A program made the translations under genes and the position numbers. A stretch of 20,000 nucleotides of DNA from an uncultured virus (IMG/VR IMGVR_UViG_3300036761_004198) (Duplodnaviria; Heunggongvirae; Uroviricota; Caudoviricetes), in the IMG/VR virus record IMGVR_UViG_3300036761_004198; one strand, 5' to 3'. The notes below the pieces were generated by a model. That model was given only the letters and a program-made list of their open reading frames with translations. It had not been told where the DNA came from and did not search any database. Shown here piece after piece: positions 2,506-12,436 of the stretch; the first letter of the stretch is position 1, and the number at the start of each line of letters is the position of its first letter.

Positions 2506-2771
2506 CACGACTTCCCTCCGTCCCACGAGTCGATCGCGCCGACGATCGCCTGCATCGCCGTGCTCGCGTCGATCTCATTGGATCGCCACTTGCCGACGAC
2601 CGCGAGCACCGCGCCCGCAGCCTCCAAGAGACGGCGGTGCGAGATCGTTCGTGCTTCGATCTCTGCGGCAAGCCTGGCGGCCAGATCCACGGGCAACTGC
2701 ATCAGCGCCTCACGACTCGCGGTCGCTTGCTGCACCGCGATCTTGAGACCTGCAACGTCAGCGTCTGTCAT
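2505..2771 (-). CDS. Hypothetical helical protein (88 aa, MTDADVAGLK...)
   Basis: TGATG coupling to the helicase stop and to the UDG start; the longer ORF-track version overlaps the helicase and is unlikely. Confidence 0.7.
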   Translation of the reverse strand: MTDADVAGLKIAVQQATASREALMQLPVDLAARLAAEIEARTISHRRLLEAAGAVLAVVGKWRSNEIDASTAMQAIVGAIDSWDGGKS

Positions 2772-4003
2772 CACACGACCACCGTCAGCGTCTTCGCCGC
2801 GCGCGTGATGGCGGTGTAGAGGTGCTTGGGCGCGTCCTTGCCGAACTGGCGGGACTCGTCGAAGATCAGGACGTCGTCGTACTGGGAGCCCTGCGCCGAG
2901 TGAGCAGTGATCGCCCACCCGTACGAAAACTCGTCGTGCTCTCGTCGATTGTGCCCGAGCAGCTCCTCCTCCCGCGCCATGAAGTGGTGCAGCCACGTCG
3001 AGCACTCGACGTGCTCGCGATCGTCCTCCGCGGAGCGGACCTCGATCTTGGCCGTCATCTTGTCCAGATCGGGCACGCAGTGATCGACCTTCCACGACGA
3101 GCCGTTGAGCAGGCCCAGCTCGTGGTTGTTGCGGCGACAGATCACGCGATCTCCCGGGACTGGCGAGGGCGACTCGCTGCGGCCGAGCAATCGCCGGATC
3201 TTCGTGTTCGACGCGTGACGCGTCCGGTTGCGGCCGACGATGATCATCTCGGCGTTGAGGGCGCGCTCTTCCAGCGACGGATCACCGTACCGGCGCACGT
3301 CGACGCCCTCGCCGGTGGGGCCGACCGGTAGCCGCTCGCCGCGACGTGCGAGGTCGGCGAGCCGCAAGATCGGGCTGTCGAGCGCCTGGCGGTGGATCTC
3401 GTCGATGTAGGCGTCCGGCTCGCGACCCGTGAAGTAGCCCGTGCCGTAGACCGGCGGCAACTGGTTCGGGTCGCCGATCACGAGGAGCTTGGTGCCGTAC
3501 GATTCCAGATCCTGGCCAACGTAGCGATCGACCATCGAGCACTCGTCGATGACGCCGACCGCTGCGCTCTTGAGATCACTCTCGAGGTTGAGCGAGAACC
3601 GCGGTCCCTTACGTTTGGACTCGTCCTCGGTGCGCTGGAGCTGCTCGACGAGCTTGTCGGCCGTCGCCTTGGCACCCGGCTCGTTCACCGCGTAAAGGCG
3701 CTTGATCTCCTCACGCAGCTTCTCGATCACTTCCGGCGACGGCGGATCACCCGCCGGCCGGTAGATCATCTGGTGGATCGTGCGGGCGGCGTTGCAGCCC
3801 TTGCGGCGCATGACGAGGGCCGCCTTGCCGGTTGGAGCGCCATATACGACGCGACCACGGACGTCGGCGACCGCGTACTTGGTGATCGTGCTCTTGCCGC
3901 TCCCCGCGGGGCCCGCGAGATAGAACGTCTGCTTACCGTTCGGATCGGCAAGCCACGCCGCGATCGCGTCGAGGGCCTTGGATTGTGTAGGAGAGAACTT
4001 CAC
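2771..4003 (-). CDS. Dda/RecD-like superfamily 1B DNA helicase
   Basis: Start GTG-KFSPTQSKA behind GAGGAGG; Walker A GPAGSGKS, APTGKAA, TIH, VIDECSMV, GDPNQLPPV, EIHRQ, AITAHSAQGSQYD, LYTAITRA. Confidence 0.95.
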   Translation of the reverse strand: MKFSPTQSKALDAIAAWLADPNGKQTFYLAGPAGSGKSTITKYAVADVRGRVVYGAPTGKAALVMRRKGCNAARTIHQMIYRPAGDPPSPEVIEKLREEIKRLYAVNEPGAKATADKLVEQLQRTEDESKRKGPRFSLNLESDLKSAAVGVIDECSMVDRYVGQDLESYGTKLLVIGDPNQLPPVYGTGYFTGREPDAYIDEIHRQALDSPILRLADLARRGERLPVGPTGEGVDVRRYGDPSLEERALNAEMIIVGRNRTRHASNTKIRRLLGRSESPSPVPGDRVICRRNNHELGLLNGSSWKVDHCVPDLDKMTAKIEVRSAEDDREHVECSTWLHHFMAREEELLGHNRREHDEFSYGWAITAHSAQGSQYDDVLIFDESRQFGKDAPKHLYTAITRAAKTLTVVV

Positions 4004-4251
4004 GCCACTCCCTCCTCGGGCGCTGAGGCGATCCGCTCGGCGTGCACGCCCTCGATCGGAGTCCCGATTGTCCCGACGCCAAGGAACGGCACCGTTGAAA
4101 CACAGGACTTGCCGATCCGCGCTCCGCAAGCTGGACACACAACGCCGGCCGCGGCGGGAAGACGCAAAGAGTGAACGGCGTCGCGTCCGCCTCCGCGCGC
4201 CCGCGGAGAATCGGCAGCTGACATCTTCGCTTGTTCGGGCGAAAACTTCAC
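4000..4251 (-). CDS. Small Zn-finger protein (CPACGA..G..C...H.ER); alternative start ATG at 4224
   Basis: CxxC...C...H pattern; GAGG RBS 5 nt before GTG at 4251; GTGA overlap with the helicase start. Confidence 0.7.
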   Translation of the reverse strand: MKFSPEQAKMSAADSPRARGGGRDAVHSLRLPAAAGVVCPACGARIGKSCVSTVPFLGVGTIGTPIEGVHAERIASAPEEGVA

Positions 4252-4256
4252 GAGCA

Positions 4257-4403
4257 CCTCAAGACAGGACTGAGGGCAACAGGAAAAGAAGAGGACCTCA
4301 CCGTCGACCTGTCACGACGGCAAGGCCCGCACGGCGGTATCGATCTCCTTTTCGCTACGCCGCCCTAGGGGCGGTATCGACGCCTTTGGAGATCTACGCC
4401 ACC
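4257..4403 (-). ncRNA. Candidate structured cis-regulatory RNA (leader of the Zn-finger/helicase/UDG/polymerase genes)
   Basis: 71-nt nested rod (4333..4403) with three helices and two identical CGUA/GAUA internal loops; hairpin 4301..4320; RBS-covering hairpin 4257..4275. G-U wobbles work on the minus strand only. Folded by eye. Confidence 0.5.
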
Positions 4404-4411
4404 AAAACGAA

Positions 4412-4624
4412 CTACGCCGCGAGCTTCGCGACCTCGTCGGCGGGCAAGCCCGCCTCGACGAGCTTCTTCTTGAGACGGTCGATCACTTCGTTGCGATCGC
4501 GGAGCTTGGCCTCGAGCACCTCGCGCGCGGCGTGGTGCTCCTTCTTCATCAGGTCATAGCCGGGAGAGCGCTGGAAGCGCTTGAGCTGCTTACGAGTGGC
4601 GGGATCGTACTTGGACGTATTCAC
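4412..4624 (-). CDS. Small basic coiled-coil hypothetical protein (70 aa)
   Basis: AAAAGGAA RBS before GTG; typical codon usage; heptad-like C-terminal half. Confidence 0.75.
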   Translation of the reverse strand: MNTSKYDPATRKQLKRFQRSPGYDLMKKEHHAAREVLEAKLRDRNEVIDRLKKKLVEAGLPADEVAKLAA

Positions 4625-4639
4625 GGGTCCGTTCCTTTT

Positions 4640-4725
4640 GCTCGATCGTCCTGCGATCGAGCGTCTCTATGTTTCAGGTGCCCGCACGATGGTCGATGCG
4701 GGAGGAGGGAGCAACTTTTTTGCTC
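4640..4725. promoter_or_regulatory. Three consecutive hairpins/inverted repeats downstream of the SSB gene
   Basis: GCTCGATCG-5nt-CGATCGAGC (4640..4662, perfect 9 bp); CCCGCACGA/TCGATGCGGG (4681..4702, one bulge); GAGCAA-5nt-TTGCTC (4709..4725). Confidence 0.45.
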
Positions 4726-4735
4726 GGGACGAGGC

Positions 4736-5635
4736 TCAGAACGGAACGCCGCTCTCGGGATCCTGACCGGGTTCCTGCTTGGTCGTCTCGTAGGCCGCCT
4801 TCGCGAGACCCGCGAGCACGTCGTCGTGGAGCTTCTTCGCCGCAACGTAGCGCGCGTCGTTCTTGGGCAGGAGCGAGTTCTTGAGATCGTCGCCGCCCTC
4901 GGCCGGCGAGAGTACCGGGACCTGGTACGTGTTCGTGGCCTTGGTCTCGGATTCCGAGGTCATCTTCACGCGGTGCGCGAAGATCGGGACCTGGCCCGGA
5001 TTGAGCTTCTTGCCGTTGATCGTCGGCGCGAAGTTACCGATCGCCGAGTTCCACGCGCGGTAGATCTTGATCTTCGTCGACACGAACGGGATCATCGCAA
5101 AGCCCTGGATCTCGCCGGTCTTGGCGTCGTACACGATGCCGTAGATCTCGAAGCTCTCGACCAGCTCGTGGGTGGGCTGGGGCTTCTGGGTCTTCGGATC
5201 GGGCGGCTGCGGCACGGCGAGCTTGCCGATCGCGCGACCGTCGTTGCGCGCGATCGCTTCGGCGACGATCTTGGCGTCCTTGCGGTGACGACCGCGGAAC
5301 CCGCCGCCGTCGTCGCGCGGGATCCACTCCGTCCAGCAGTGGTCGGTGATCGCCGGCACGAAGTAGACCTCTTCGTAGATCTCCTCGGTCACCGTGTTGC
5401 GGAACATGCCCGCCCACACCTTGCCCTTGCTCTCAGCGACCTCGGGCGAGTTCGACTGGAGCAGCTCGATGAGCGGCAGCTTCCGGTCGGACATGTCCTG
5501 GTTCTCGAAGCCCTGACCGGAGTCGTCGCCGTAGTCGAAAACCTCGATCGCCTGCGTCTCGGGCGGCGGCGTCATCGCCATCACCGGGGGCTGGTCCTTG
5601 CTTCCGTTCGCGCTTGCCTGTTGCTTGGTCGTCAT
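4736..5635 (-). CDS. Phage single-stranded DNA-binding protein (299 aa)
   Basis: ATG behind an A-rich leader with AAGGA; DYGDDSGQGFEN..D..LP.I.LLQSNSPEV N-terminal signature of SSB-like proteins in PolA/SNF2 phage modules; acidic-aromatic tail QDPESGVPF. Confidence 0.75.
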   Translation of the reverse strand: MTTKQQASANGSKDQPPVMAMTPPPETQAIEVFDYGDDSGQGFENQDMSDRKLPLIELLQSNSPEVAESKGKVWAGMFRNTVTEEIYEEVYFVPAITDHCWTEWIPRDDGGGFRGRHRKDAKIVAEAIARNDGRAIGKLAVPQPPDPKTQKPQPTHELVESFEIYGIVYDAKTGEIQGFAMIPFVSTKIKIYRAWNSAIGNFAPTINGKKLNPGQVPIFAHRVKMTSESETKATNTYQVPVLSPAEGGDDLKNSLLPKNDARYVAAKKLHDDVLAGLAKAAYETTKQEPGQDPESGVPF

Positions 5636-8757: not shown

Positions 8758-9068
8758 GCGCTGCTCCTGATCGGATACGTCCACGAGCGGACGACGGCCG
8801 GCGTCACGCCGATCGCGGCAGCGATCGCTTGATACGTCACCACCGGCGAACGAAGGAGGACGGTGAGGCGTTGCTTGAAGTCCTCGGTCACGATGCACGC
8901 CGCGTGGCCGTCCAGCTTACTGCCGGCCCAGCGACGCCAGTGCCGACCGCAGTAACGGCAGGTGTTCAGATCGGCGCCCGGATCGTCCGGGCACCAGCGT
9001 GCTCCCTGCGACGCGATCATGTTGGAGAGACGGAACTCGTCTCGAAGAGCAACGGCGTCGAGCAACAT
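8754..9068 (-). CDS. Putative DNA-binding protein: CxxC/HxxC Zn motif plus C-terminal HTH
   Basis: TCRYCGR...HAAC and TYQAIAAAIGVTPAVVRSW. Confidence 0.7.
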   Translation of the reverse strand: MLLDAVALRDEFRLSNMIASQGARWCPDDPGADLNTCRYCGRHWRRWAGSKLDGHAACIVTEDFKQRLTVLLRSPVVTYQAIAAAIGVTPAVVRSWTYPIRSSA

Positions 9069-9073
9069 GCGGT

Positions 9074-9274
9074 TCAGCCTTCTCCGTGGTGCCGATCGCG
9101 CGCGCGCAGCCAGTCGAGGATCTCCTCAAGTTCGTGCTTGGCCGCAACCACGTGATCGTCGGTAGCGCACTCCTCCCAAACCTCCTTCATCAGTAGCTCG
9201 CCCCCTTTGAGGTCATCTTCGATCGCCATGATGATCTGTCGACGGACGAGCGATTGGATCTGCACCATCTTCAT
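9074..9274 (-). CDS. Small acidic hypothetical protein (66 aa, MKMVQIQ...)
   Basis: ATGA overlap with the upstream gene; GAGGA RBS. Confidence 0.7.
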   Translation of the reverse strand: MKMVQIQSLVRRQIIMAIEDDLKGGELLMKEVWEECATDDHVVAAKHELEEILDWLRARDRHHGEG

Positions 9275-9447
9275 CGCCGCGCTTCCTCTGCCGCGTGATC
9301 GCTGCCGTGACGACGCGCGACCTTGCTCGTCTCCACCCACGCGCCTTCCCAGCCACACGAGCACCGCGGCATGAACAGCTCGGGATACGCCGGTGACACG
9401 AGATGGACCGCGTAGCCTCCGCACACGACCTTGACGTGATGCTTCAC
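9271..9447 (-). CDS. Small putative Zn-binding protein (58 aa, MKHHVKVVCGG...RCSCGWEG...RRHGSDH)
   Basis: Hand translation, below the ORF-track length cut-off; CxCGW...HxxxH; fills the gap and overlaps the next gene by ATGA. Confidence 0.65.
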   Translation of the reverse strand: MKHHVKVVCGGYAVHLVSPAYPELFMPRCSCGWEGAWVETSKVARRHGSDHAAEEARR

Positions 9448-9460
9448 GCTGCGCCCATGA

Positions 9461-10168
9461 TTATTTTTCCCCGACGCGACGCCGGGAACTGGGCGTGCCG
9501 CCGAGTTCTTTCAGGAGCGACGCGTGGAGCCACCCGGCGATCGTCTCAACGTCGACCCCGAGGATCTTGGAGGCACCCTTGATGTGGTTAGGTGCCATGG
9601 GGTACGTGCCGTTTGCCCAGGCACTTACCGTCGGCTTGGACACACCCATCACCTTCGCAAACTGTGAGCGGTTCATATCGATGAAGGTCAGCGACGCGAC
9701 CAACTGTTCGCCAAAGCCCGTGCACCACACCGTTCTCGATGATCGAAGATCCCGCCTTCGCGAAGTCGTACGTTTCCGTCTAGTCCGTAAAACATGGGTG
9801 CGCAGCCTGTGACAGTTAGAGCAAACAACATCACACTTAGCGATCTCCGCAAGCAGTACATCGCGACCCATCTTGCGTGCCGCGATAGTAAACAACTTAA
9901 TTTCTCCAGGACGATGATCAAAATCCATGCAGACGGGATGAAACCGTTTGCGACAGTCCATGCACGGCACATTCTTGAAACTGAGGATCAAAGCGCGTAG
10001 TGCCGTAGACTTCTCCTTTGCACTATCTGTCTTACGATAACGCGCTCCACATCGAGCAGCGGACATACGCCCCTTGGCACTAGTCCGATATCTTTTTTGA
10101 GTAGTTCGTCCCTTTGCCGTTTGAAGATAACGGTGCTGAGCCTCGGCATAGTCTGCCTTGGTCCACAC
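9461..10168 (-). CDS. HNH endonuclease fused to a C-terminal XRE/Cro-like HTH
   Basis: Basic repeats YLQTAKGR/YRTSAKGR; CMDC...MDFDHR...EIAKCDVVCSNCHRLRT; then MNRSQFAKVMGVSKPTVSAWANG. Visibly AT-richer over ~9780..10170. Confidence 0.88.
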   Translation of the reverse strand: MWTKADYAEAQHRYLQTAKGRTTQKRYRTSAKGRMSAARCGARYRKTDSAKEKSTALRALILSFKNVPCMDCRKRFHPVCMDFDHRPGEIKLFTIAARKMGRDVLLAEIAKCDVVCSNCHRLRTHVLRTRRKRTTSRRRDLRSSRTVWCTGFGEQLVASLTFIDMNRSQFAKVMGVSKPTVSAWANGTYPMAPNHIKGASKILGVDVETIAGWLHASLLKELGGTPSSRRRVGEK

Positions 10169-10170
10169 GG

Positions 10171-10743
10171 CTAAGTCGCGGCTCCCATGATCTCGTCGTA
10201 GTTGAACTCCGTGCCAAGCGCGTCGTCGATCGTGATCAGCTCCTCGACGACGCGCTGGAGAGGCTCACCGTTGTAGATGTAGACGTGCGACGGAACCTTC
10301 ACCTGGCGCTTGACGAACTGGCGGCCGAGCGACGTCAGTTTCCAGTAGCCGACGCGAGGGCTGCCGTCCGCGCGGACGTCCGGCTTCTCCTCGATGAGGC
10401 CCCAGAACTTCAGCTTCGCCCAGTCGCCACGAACGGCCGCGGCGCGGCGGGGATGGTCGGACACCATCTCGGAGATGTAGCTCGGAACGTGCAGCCACTC
10501 CTCGACAGGATCCCCTTGGAAGTAGCACGCGATCAGGAGCAGTACGTAGGCCATCGATTTGTTGAAGGGTCGTTTGTACAATTTCACGAACTGGTTGCAG
10601 CACGGGCACGTAGCACCTTTGCCGAAGCGCGCGCGTAACCACTTCTTCGCCTCCGCCAGCGTTGTCTTCTGGTCCGCGACGAAGAATTCCTCTTTCACGT
10701 CGCGCTTCGGATCATTCTTTGCGGCGGTCTTTGCGGCGTTCAT
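10171..10743 (-). CDS. Phage hypothetical protein with CPCC Zn knuckle and winged-helix-like C-terminus (190 aa)
   Basis: ATG at 10743 just after the SNF2 stop; CPCCNQFVKLY, AKLKFWGLIE, GYWKLTSLGRQFV. Confidence 0.8.
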   Translation of the reverse strand: MNAAKTAAKNDPKRDVKEEFFVADQKTTLAEAKKWLRARFGKGATCPCCNQFVKLYKRPFNKSMAYVLLLIACYFQGDPVEEWLHVPSYISEMVSDHPRRAAAVRGDWAKLKFWGLIEEKPDVRADGSPRVGYWKLTSLGRQFVKRQVKVPSHVYIYNGEPLQRVVEELITIDDALGTEFNYDEIMGAAT

Positions 10744-10771
10744 GGCTTCACGATAGCGGGCGGCTCTGACA

Positions 10772-12436
10772 TCACTCTTCAACCAACCAGGATCTGTATT
10801 TATCGCCGGTAACTTTGTTGGCAACGTCAGCGCAATCCTGAAGGGAGCGTAAGATCTTCTCGTCGACCGTCTTGTACGCGACCATGTCGTAGTAGCAGAC
10901 CGCGCCCATACCGCCGCCGACGAGCCGGTGCGATCGGTCTTCGCTCTGGAGCCGATTGATGTAACTGAAGTCGTTCGAGTAGTAGAAGACGCTCTTGGCC
11001 ATCGGCAGCGAGTGCCCCATGCCCATCGACGACGCCTTCGCGACACAGAACTTCTTCTTCCCCTGCTTGAACTGATCGAGCCCCGCGTCGCGATCCTTCT
11101 GGCTAACGAGCCCGTCGTAGCGCGTGCACTTTGGCGGGCCGAGCGCGCGACAGATCGAGTCGACGTCCTCCGTGAAGCGCGCCCATACAATCGCCTGATG
11201 TGGCGTGTCTTCGAGTCTCTCGAGCAGGAGCTGAAGCCGCGGATTCTTACCGTCATCGTTGAAGAACCGCTTCGGCTCCGCCTCTGGATCCTCTGGGTTC
11301 GGCAAGTATCCGCACGCGATCTGCTGGAGGCGTAGTACCCGCACGAGCGCGAGCGGCGCCGTAATGAGCACCCCCGAATCCAGCTCGACCATGTACTCCT
11401 TGCGGAGCTGATCGTAGACCCGGCGCTGCTCGGGCAGTAGATCGAAGAGGAGCCGGCTATAGAGCTTCGGTGGCAACTCGACGCCCGCGTCCTCCTTCGT
11501 GAGGCGCGTCGAGACCGGCATGATCATCGCCTTGAGCTTGTCGAGCTCACGGAAACCGACAACAACCTCGATCGTGCGACCGACCGTCGCCTTCTTCGGG
11601 GCTGCCGTCGCTGCGGGTCGCGAGACCTGCTTCACCTCGTCAGGTTCCAGGACCTCGGAGAAGTCGAGCTGCTCGTACGCCGCGATTCCGGCCTCCGTCG
11701 CGTCGTGCGGAACGATCGGCTCCCAGCTGTGCTTCCCGCGCCCGGCGCGGTCGTCCTCACCGCCGACCGGGATCCTCCGCGTGATCGCGAACTGCGCCTT
11801 GAACGCGGTCCACGATCCGATGCCGTGTCGGATCCAGAACCGGTTGTCGAGGAGCTTCATCTGAGCGTAGACGTCAAGGGCGCTGTTGCCGATCGGCGTG
11901 CCGTTAAGGAGCCGCACGTGCGAGGCGAACTGCCGGAGTGCGTCCACCTTCTTGGTGCGCAGCGCCTCGGGATTACGCACCTTGCTCGCCTCGTCAATCA
12001 CGAGCAAGAAGCGCGGAAAACGCTCCTTGAACTTGAGCACCGCTGCCCGACCGCGCGCCGTCATCATCCCCTCGTACGTGATCGCGAGCCACGTCAGCTC
12101 GGTCCGCCGGCCCGGCGTCGGTGCGAGCAGCCGCTCGACCGCCTTGTCCTGGCCCTTGCCACGATCGGAGTGCCAATCCATGCCTCGCCACGGCAGGCCG
12201 GCGTGCCTGGGCAGCTCGTCGCTGATCCAGTTGCGGTGCACGCCGTTCGGGGCAACGACCATCGCCCCGTCGATCCGGTTCTGCCGATAGAGGTGCTCGA
12301 CGGTGCGGATCGTCGGAGCCGTCTTGCCGAGGCCCTGCTCAAACAAGACGGCCCACGCCACGGCGTCGCGCGTCTGATCGAACAGCTCCTGCTGGTGACG
12401 GAAGAGCGGGGGCGGCTCCTTCTCCGGCGTGATCAT
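10772..12436 (-). CDS. SNF2-family (SF2) helicase/translocase
   Basis: LFRHQ, EQGLGKT, VIDEAS, LLNGTPI, RLQQIACG, IVWARF, GMGHSL, RLQSEDRSHR. Confidence 0.95.
   Translation of the reverse strand: MITPEKEPPPLFRHQQELFDQTRDAVAWAVLFEQGLGKTAPTIRTVEHLYRQNRIDGAMVVAPNGVHRNWISDELPRHAGLPWRGMDWHSDRGKGQDKAVERLLAPTPGRRTELTWLAITYEGMMTARGRAAVLKFKERFPRFLLVIDEASKVRNPEALRTKKVDALRQFASHVRLLNGTPIGNSALDVYAQMKLLDNRFWIRHGIGSWTAFKAQFAITRRIPVGGEDDRAGRGKHSWEPIVPHDATEAGIAAYEQLDFSEVLEPDEVKQVSRPAATAAPKKATVGRTIEVVVGFRELDKLKAMIMPVSTRLTKEDAGVELPPKLYSRLLFDLLPEQRRVYDQLRKEYMVELDSGVLITAPLALVRVLRLQQIACGYLPNPEDPEAEPKRFFNDDGKNPRLQLLLERLEDTPHQAIVWARFTEDVDSICRALGPPKCTRYDGLVSQKDRDAGLDQFKQGKKKFCVAKASSMGMGHSLPMAKSVFYYSNDFSYINRLQSEDRSHRLVGGGMGAVCYYDMVAYKTVDEKILRSLQDCADVANKVTGDKYRSWLVEE

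Follow-up and report, generated by a model that had tools for sequence, protein, structure and literature searches.

The record of an uncultured virus, IMGVR_UViG_3300036761_004198 (Caudoviricetes), raises the question of what a 71-nt rod-like structure is doing in the spacer between a conserved gene for a 70-amino-acid (70-aa) protein and a block of replication genes. We analyzed a 20,000-nt stretch of this record (hereafter, the window), in which all genes at the locus lie on the minus strand. A first-pass annotation, made from the sequence without database searches, had proposed that the rod is a new structured RNA carrying two identical loop-E-like internal loops, a two-site element for a dimeric regulator such as the 70-aa protein or a mimic for a host protein. 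Comparison with related loci indicates that the rod is a real feature, beyond chance given its conservation in relatives, and that it is the window's enlarged local version of a hairpin, H1, conserved in related phage-like elements. H1 is probably a regulatory RNA structure. We tentatively favor the explanation that H1 was enlarged in this lineage to give the rod and that H1 is one of three conserved RNA structures of the sense strand, the first in order, which together would gate transcription and translation from the small gene into the replication genes, H1 being an accessory hairpin whose conserved face may be read by a factor or an RNase.

The rod and its counterparts in related loci

The letters of the rod on the minus strand (4403..4333) match those of the first-pass annotation exactly, and the nested helices it described, GGUGG/CCGCC, GAUCUCC/GGAGAUC, and CCGCCC/GGGCGG, are reproduced by RNAfold at -33.8 kcal/mol. 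The outer helix P1 pairs 4403-4399 with 4337-4333 and is followed by an outer copy of a four-by-four segment, with CGUA (4398-4395) opposite GAUA (4341-4338), and by helix P2 (4394-4388 with 4348-4342). Further in, an inner copy sets GAUA (4378-4375) opposite CGUA (4359-4356) below an apical hairpin (4374-4360); the segment does occur twice in opposite orientation, as had been claimed. In the RNAfold structure, each copy has its two central positions paired (G.U and U-A), with single C.A and A.G mismatches on the flanks. The rod is more stable than its dinucleotide shuffles (mean -21.7, standard deviation [sd] 3.3; z -3.69), none of which (0/200) is as stable. The plus strand folds at -31.3 kcal/mol (z -3.21), one outer pair short because the U.G wobble of the outer helix (4401 with 4335), which is indeed confined to the sense strand, becomes C.A there. 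Refolding into two smaller hairpins is possible, yet the result is 15 kcal/mol weaker (-9.1 + -9.3 = -18.4 vs. -33.8 kcal/mol).

We found 110 relatives of the 70-aa protein (56-86% identity), and a profile built from 70 of them led to 14 metagenome loci (L167-L180), so that the comparison covers 15 related sequences including the window. Each of these 14 loci, which all carry a relative of the 70-aa gene, has related sequence in the same spacer, and the gene order is kept throughout: the 70-aa gene, the spacer, and then either a zinc-finger gene (10/14) or the helicase gene directly. We could place H1 at the same spot in 12 of the 14, 8-25 nt past the 70-aa stop codon; the L172 record ends within the hairpin. 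At seven of these 12 loci (L169, L170, L173, L175, L176, L178, and L180), H1 is one simple hairpin of 30-50 nt, close to 35 nt in its usual form, laid out as P1, CGUA opposite GAUA, P2, and a short loop. One locus, L174, has two H1 hairpins in tandem, L177 has a 66-nt form, and long rods of 69-92 nt are found in the closest relatives of the window, L167, L168, and L171. The window alone has a second full CGUA/GAUA copy, of which L171 keeps a partial inner version (a second CGUAG alone).

Covariation was assessed on 14 hairpin units (the window and 12 loci, L174 contributing two), aligned without gaps around the CGUA segment. In the H1 stems, 85.5% of cells pair, vs. 75.9% (sd 2.0) after partner shuffling, a level that 0 of 1000 shuffles reach, with the caveat that registers were chosen by hand to maximize pairing and the pairing figures are inflated accordingly. 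Eight of 11 stem pairs are altered on both sides (3/1000 shuffles), and the covariation score is 0.425 vs. 0.259 in shuffles (0/1000). P1 position 3, for example, is G-C, C-G, U-A, or U.G, and P2 positions 2 and 4 alternate between U-A and C-G. The structural conservation and covariation that the first-pass annotation had named as a check on its proposal are thus present, and 11 of 12 homologous segments fold at z <= -1.6. Stems of the 14 units contain 17 G.U pairs vs. 7 A.C, which means better pairing on the gene-sense strand than on the complementary one. The features expected of a structured cis-regulatory RNA, namely constant position, covarying helices, and a G.U strand bias, are all found in these 15 sequences with hand-chosen registers.

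The part of H1 above the conserved strands is far more variable, ranging from a 4-nt loop to inserted hairpins of ~70 nt. The gap between the conserved strands consequently runs from 14 nt in L173 to ~76 nt in L171, which implies that it takes a folded single strand, as opposed to duplex DNA, to bring them together; the fixed half-site spacing of a dimeric duplex-DNA operator is not seen. A related proposal, that direct repeats in the rod act only as double-stranded DNA operators, probably does not describe a general function, given that just one copy is present in most relatives. The repeat, GGCGGTATCGA, is exact at 4333-4343 and 4370-4380, and as a direct repeat it is confined to the window, where three matches at <=1 mismatch compare with 0.64 expected (7/200 shuffles reach three). 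Separately, the hairpin tip (4360-4374 in the window; also L167, L168, L172, and L178) is repeatedly CCCUAGGG or a near variant of it, despite differing stems below.

The CGUA/GAUA segment itself is conserved unequally. Its 5′ strand CGUA is retained in 12 of 14 units, as is the A.G mismatch, whereas the 3′ strand GAUA, and hence the exact pair, occurs in just six. The middle two positions form standard pairs in 13/14 and 12/14 units. In five units, the 3′ strand has been swapped for Watson-Crick partners with the 5′ strand nearly constant (UGCG in L173, GUCG in L169, UCCG in L167, GAUG in L174u2, and UGUA/GACA in L168). These altered units have C-G or U-A at the first position and, in four of the five, G-C at the second (G.U is kept in L174u2); in L173, the segment is fully paired and the hairpin reaches -21.6 kcal/mol (z -6.7).

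Loop E is a stack of a sheared A.G, a reverse-Hoogsteen U.A, and a bifurcated G.U, and GUA opposite GAU in the rod does fit that sub-motif of the 5S rRNA site for protein L25. In contrast to loop E, the segment has Watson-Crick replacements in relatives, a C.A flank in place of further non-canonical pairs, and no Rfam 5S match. The letters fit loop E in 6 of 14 units, and five have Watson-Crick pairs, so the isosteric non-canonical stack is not kept; judged from the alignment, the segment appears to behave as an ordinary helix with two tolerated mismatches. Nor does the basic N-terminus of the 70-aa protein follow the changes in the segment: of its first 24 residues, 2 distinguish the window from L167, two sequences whose 3′ strands are wholly different. 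Because a single copy is the usual state and relatives have Watson-Crick replacements, the loop-E, two-site, and dimeric-regulator readings of the first-pass annotation are all unsupported; two full copies exist in the window only, and the two-copy segment is not the conserved form. The doubled loops are best seen as a local duplication, unsuitable as a definition of the motif. Our literature search found no paper on a loop E motif in phage intergenic hairpins.

A second hairpin and a masked ribosome-binding site

Two further structures follow H1 on the minus strand, and together the three fill the ~150-nt spacer ahead of the replication genes. H2 (4293..4328) is a 14-bp GC-rich hairpin with the loop UGACAGGU (4314-4307), flagged as terminator-like, and starts ~1-11 nt after H1. 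It is followed by the pyrimidine/U-rich tail UCUUCUUUU (4284..4292) and then by CCUGUUGC (4276..4283; site 1), which is complementary to the H2 loop and is a candidate pseudoknot partner or antisense target. The third structure is a hairpin (4257..4275) that pairs CCUCA (4275-4271) with UGAGG (4261-4257) and buries the ribosome-binding site (RBS); its loop contains CCUGUC (4268-4263; site 2). In the H2 alignment, 10 of 14 pairs are altered on both sides and 81.7% of cells pair; folded on its own, H2 forms 12-16 bp in 12/14 sequences. When H2 was tested together with the Shine-Dalgarno hairpin, 0 of 500 shuffles reached the covariation score.

The H2 loop is conserved as UUGACAGG, complementary to CCUGUYG downstream at a distance of 28-36 nt in 13 loci, and the longest complementary run is 7-11 nt in 12/14 sequences. 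Loop and site co-vary in L180 (GAACAGG with CCUGUUC), L179 (CAGAU with AUCUG), and L167, and flanking loop/site pairs shift from G-C to A-U in L180 and L179. L174 keeps the loop and has no target site. Pairing of loops with their own sites averages 8.07 nt vs. 7.24 nt with sites from other loci. A second CUG[UC] site is listed for seven loci; six of them form the complete set of six core pairs, and L179 is the exception. Based on these sequences, the complementarity could reflect a pseudoknot, an antisense seed acting in trans, or repeated DNA sites.

Flanking genes and the reach of the motif

Upstream of the spacer, the conserved 70-aa gene (P0001; 4412..4624, minus strand) encodes a helical protein with a basic N-terminus. 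AlphaFold2, run with 70 sequences, predicts helices at residues 8-18 (basic), 21-57 (long), and 62-69 (short, C-terminal) with a mean pLDDT of 92.6. The protein matched no Pfam, PHROG, or NCBIfam family, Foldseek against the PDB gave no match at E <=0.001, and a protein atlas returned just unnamed or coiled-coil-like neighbors at chance-level scores. Some of the relatives have 70-aa proteins that are only 50-60% identical. What links the protein to the hairpin is their synteny.

Ahead of the 70-aa gene lies a promoter-like motif, TTGCTC-N17-CATCGT (4686..4714, minus strand), with the A-rich stretch CAAAAAAG upstream. It is the sole exact match in the window, its conserved form is TTGCYC-N17-CATCGT, and 6 of 14 loci carry it without change at the syntenic position (L168, L170, L173, L175, L176, and L177), which is consistent with a putative promoter. 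There is no copy of the motif between H2 and the next gene in the window, so the replication genes plausibly depend on read-through. The 70-aa leader contains a hairpin, GCUCGAUCG-CAGGA-CGAUCGAGC (4639..4663, minus strand), 5′ of the 70-aa RBS, and L167, L170, and L177 have similar hairpins in the corresponding position. The start region of the gene (4590-4640, minus strand) is nearly invariant in nucleotides across 14 sequences, AAGGAACGGAC...ACGUCCAAGUACGA, and this extends to synonymous positions (Ser is UCC in 14/14); GGAC and GUCC around the start codon could pair.

Downstream of H1, the genes are, in order, a zinc finger, a Dda-like helicase, an unassigned gene, and a family-A DNA polymerase. 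The zinc-finger gene (4000..4257, minus strand; likely start GTG 4251), missing from the first-pass context, sits between the rod and the helicase, is conserved in 10/14 loci, and matches Pfam PF24623 (Phage_zn_bind_8; E 2.2e-8, 34.2 bits vs. a cut-off of 24). Its stop overlaps the helicase start as GUGA. The helicase (2771..4003, minus strand; PHROG 325, E 5.8e-83; Pfam AAA_30 and UvrD_C_2) is the first large gene of the replication block. Its longest open frame (2771-4138) begins 45 codons early and overlaps the zinc-finger gene; we place the start at GTG 4003 because relatives align from ~residue 46 and because of the GUGA overlap. The UDG gene listed earlier was not confirmed (Pfam UDG, E 0.11, 13 bits vs. 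a cut-off of 24.3). The zinc finger and the helicase begin alike ([V]KFSPEQAK vs. VKFSPTQSK; 6/9 identical, E 0.058), and in loci that lack the zinc-finger gene, the helicase comes next; one possibility is that the zinc-finger gene arrived by insertion, together with a copy of the helicase start.

The wider neighborhood is phage-like, with an SNF2 helicase, HNH nucleases, and Pam3 gp33- and gp34-like proteins. One contig in the 70-aa protein cluster is 431 kb long, from which integration of the element seems probable. GC content falls from ~0.65 to 0.58 at 9000-11500, over genes for an HNH-nuclease/helix-turn-helix protein and a PHROG 2693 protein; this stretch may be a mobile insertion. GC-skew has no turning point near 4.3 kb.

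The earlier statement that the rod belongs to no described family holds: there is no relevant match in Rfam 15, including C4 and 5S rRNA. At gathering scores, Rfam gave 0 matches in the whole window and 0 in 13 related loci, and at E up to 10 the region 3900-4900 gave ncS037 alone (opposite strand, coding 4406-4545; 19.9 bits vs. a gathering score of 112). A tRNA/tmRNA scan of the window found none, and blastn of 3800-5000 against a phage collection gave no match. Among viral contigs, there are helicase relatives at only 40-45% identity and no relative of the 70-aa protein or the zinc finger; likewise, 160 helicase loci from genomes (39-45% identity) have no 70-aa gene and no zinc finger. Our H1 model (R1) had 0 matches at E <=0.1 in 100 of these 160 loci, and the H2-leader model (R2) had no convincing match in the 160; its best match (L099, 24.3 bits), whose loop does not correspond, is a standard terminator with CCCTGTCGG after it. 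The 70-aa profile, run on 401 genomes sampled from one class, gave a single weak match, which lies in a frame of 265 aa and is no relative. The exact double-repeat pattern occurs at six loci in viral contigs; those examined are an unrelated tandem repeat (L081) and coding repeats (L082 and L083). In L081 (2975-3055), GGCGGTATCGA lies within a ~40-nt tandem repeat, a chance sharing of an 11-mer; the other three loci, L084-L086, match the pattern over an equal length.

Within 65.8 kb of the window and related loci, R1 found only this spacer, plus a weaker copy at L178:859-895; because the model cannot bridge the long apical insert of the window, the rod is seen there as two weak halves (16.4 and 15.3 bits). 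The L178 copy belongs to a second H1/H2-like pair (859-940; UGCCGG-AUA-UUCC...GGGUU-GAU-CCGGCA, then a GC hairpin and AUUUUUG) lying 3′ of the gene that precedes the 70-aa gene, where other loci have the promoter-like motif; its position after a different gene fits a module belonging to gene ends. Contigs from four DNA runs that cover the rod are identical same-strain pieces, plus one diverged contig that ends at the H1 border. Three other roles for H1 or its neighbors were considered and rejected: a stop-codon read-through signal (there is an in-frame stop 5 codons on, and relatives do not preserve the frame), a promoter within H1 or the H2 loop (TTGACA, with no plausible -10 at fixed spacing), and base-pairing between GGCGUA and the 70-aa gene at codons 2-4 (5-6 bp only).

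Possible roles of the leader

Several known systems resemble parts of this arrangement. The boxB-N sites of lambda and P22 and the put RNA of HK022 (two hairpins, ~70 nt) are phage sites of processive antitermination. Like them, the locus has a small hairpin RNA in front of a terminator-like hairpin, next to a gene whose product is small and basic, and ahead of delayed genes; by analogy, a nut/put-like arrangement could allow regulated read-through. Unlike them, H1 has its conserved bases in the stem, not the apical loop, shares no sequence or Rfam similarity, and adjoins a protein without a family. The T4 gene 32/43 operators are likewise structured leaders, with a candidate pseudoknot, before a masked RBS of replication genes, but there is no sequence relation. 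T7-type RNase III hairpins share with H1 an irregular intergenic hairpin between two messages in a phage with a family-A polymerase, whereas simple H1 forms have just 14-17 bp. REP/BIME elements are imperfect ~35-nt palindromes after genes, sometimes inversely paired and containing GTAG; H1, in contrast, does not appear to be dispersed and keeps one syntenic site across diverged relatives, with no further copies in the window or locus flanks except L178:859-895.

From these structures, we infer transcription, termination, a possible binding partner, and an effect on expression, as well as the exact role of H1, along the following lines. Transcripts of the small 70-aa gene would fold H1 and then H2. 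Some transcripts may stop in the U/C-rich tail, where H1 and H2 would shield the 3′ end, and in read-through transcripts, the H2 loop may pair with CCUGUYG beside the masked RBS. H1 would be accessory, its conserved face being the 5′ strand GGCGUAG with the A.G mismatch, and a trans-acting factor or an RNase could read that face and set how much expression is passed to the replication genes.

A number of observations weigh against this explanation. The sequences compared are few and related to one another, the H1 registers were chosen by hand, and some loci are poor examples: L179 has lost the 5′ strand of H1, L177 has a weak P1, and the L175 segment is no more stable than shuffles (z -0.02). 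In the window, the plus strand folds almost as well as the minus strand (-31.3 vs. -33.8 kcal/mol), and DNA-parameter folding does not separate the strands at all (-16.0 vs. -15.7). At least five U are present in the first eight bases after H2 in only 5 of 14 sequences, the others being C/U-rich, so termination at H2 is doubtful; some loci may use H2 as an attenuator, and in others it may chiefly form part of a pseudoknot. Conservation of the segment is one-sided, with GGCGUAG fixed and the partner strand free, for which pairing alone is no explanation. A search of public sequencing runs for the stretch found no RNA run among those containing it.

Among the alternatives, the two-site model holds that two loop-E-like loops bind a dimeric regulator (e.g., the 70-aa protein) or mimic the L25-bound host RNA, thereby controlling the replication genes. 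It draws on the two identical segments in the window, on the retention of CGUA and of the A.G mismatch in 12/14 units each, on the 70-aa gene being adjacent at 14/14 loci with neither gene nor H1 in outside helicase loci (H1: 100 searched), and on a protein predicted with confidence to have a long helix plus a basic N-terminal helix, a shape that could dimerize. The model is nevertheless unlikely, given one simple hairpin at 7/12 loci, two full copies in the window alone, an exact pair in 6/14 units with Watson-Crick swaps (L173, L169, L167, L168, and L174u2) that are not isosteric with the loop-E stack, a basic region that stays constant while the loop changes (window vs. L167), and a protein without a fold match. 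We are similarly doubtful that H1 and H2 form a stable small RNA, produced by cleavage or termination of the small-gene transcript, in which the H2 loop is an antisense seed on the two CCUGUC sites and H1 serves in stabilization or processing. Complementarity of the loop to site 1 in 12/14 sequences, the six core pairs at six of seven listed second-site loci, the coordinated changes in L180, L179, and L167, and a target at the masked RBS of the replication genes all suit this idea, as does an element that looks integrated (the 431-kb contig), a state requiring silent replication genes. There is also a precedent: according to PMC4825925, the CI RNA of P4, a processing product of the same transcript, blocks the replication genes and base-pairs with two sequences complementary to it. 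P4 CI and P1 c4 (Rfam C4) share with our locus a hairpin loop complementary to two same-transcript sites at the entry to replication genes. Here, however, both sites are downstream, vs. one on each side in P4, and no Rfam match to C4 or another family was found. L174 has the loop without a target site, pairing to own sites barely exceeds pairing to those of other loci, an intramolecular pseudoknot or repeated DNA sites would also account for the complementarity, and the absence of an RNA run among the public runs counts against this model too. Slightly less probable is an immunity-type reading, in which H1-H2 would be a new phage small RNA released from the 3′ end of the 70-aa message, its H2 loop pairing two sites at the masked replication RBS in the manner of P4 CI and P1 c4, with the 70-aa protein reading the GGCGUAG/A.G face to stabilize or switch the RNA. 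If true, RNA and protein would together make up an undescribed switch by which an integrated element holds or releases its replication.

We also considered that the element works at the DNA level, either as a single-stranded hairpin or cruciform for replication start or helicase/primase loading or as a set of duplex operators. Its location directly upstream of replication genes, the folding of both window strands, the tolerance of DNA hairpins for G.T pairs, and a putative DNA-binding zinc finger as the next gene downstream could all be read this way. Set against these, the variable gap between the conserved halves excludes a fixed duplex dimer site, the GGCGGTATCGA direct repeat is unique to the window, and the excess of G.U over A.C (17 vs. 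7) means that the antisense strand pairs worse and disfavors a cruciform. With no GC-skew turning point near 4.3 kb, and with surroundings that read as mRNA (a masked RBS and a U/C-rich tail on the sense strand only), a DNA-level role is also unlikely. As improbable, in our view, is that H1 has no regulatory role of its own and is a passenger, one of the stem-loops of a terminator region or an RNase III-type site separating messages, with a neutral duplication in the window. The plasticity of its apical part and copy number, the degraded versions in L175, L177, and L179, and the similar hairpin pair after another gene in L178 would suit a passenger. Helices of 14-17 bp are on the short side for RNase III, though, and GGCGUAG with the A.G mismatch is kept, while surrounding stems change, across relatives whose 70-aa proteins are 50-60% identical, which points to selection on specific bases.

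The enlarged-H1 explanation, in which the rod is the first part of a leader ahead of the replication genes, is of a kind already known, the phage cis-regulatory leader RNA; the motif itself, as far as our sequence searches go, does not appear to be a described family. If confirmed, it would be an undescribed RNA motif family, a three-part leader consisting of H1, H2 with its loop pairing, and a masked RBS, that gates replication genes in uncultivated, high-GC, integrated phage-like elements from soils and sediments. Such a leader would let control of phage replication at the RNA level be studied in a compact, testable system, and the conserved orphan 70-aa protein would gain a candidate partner.

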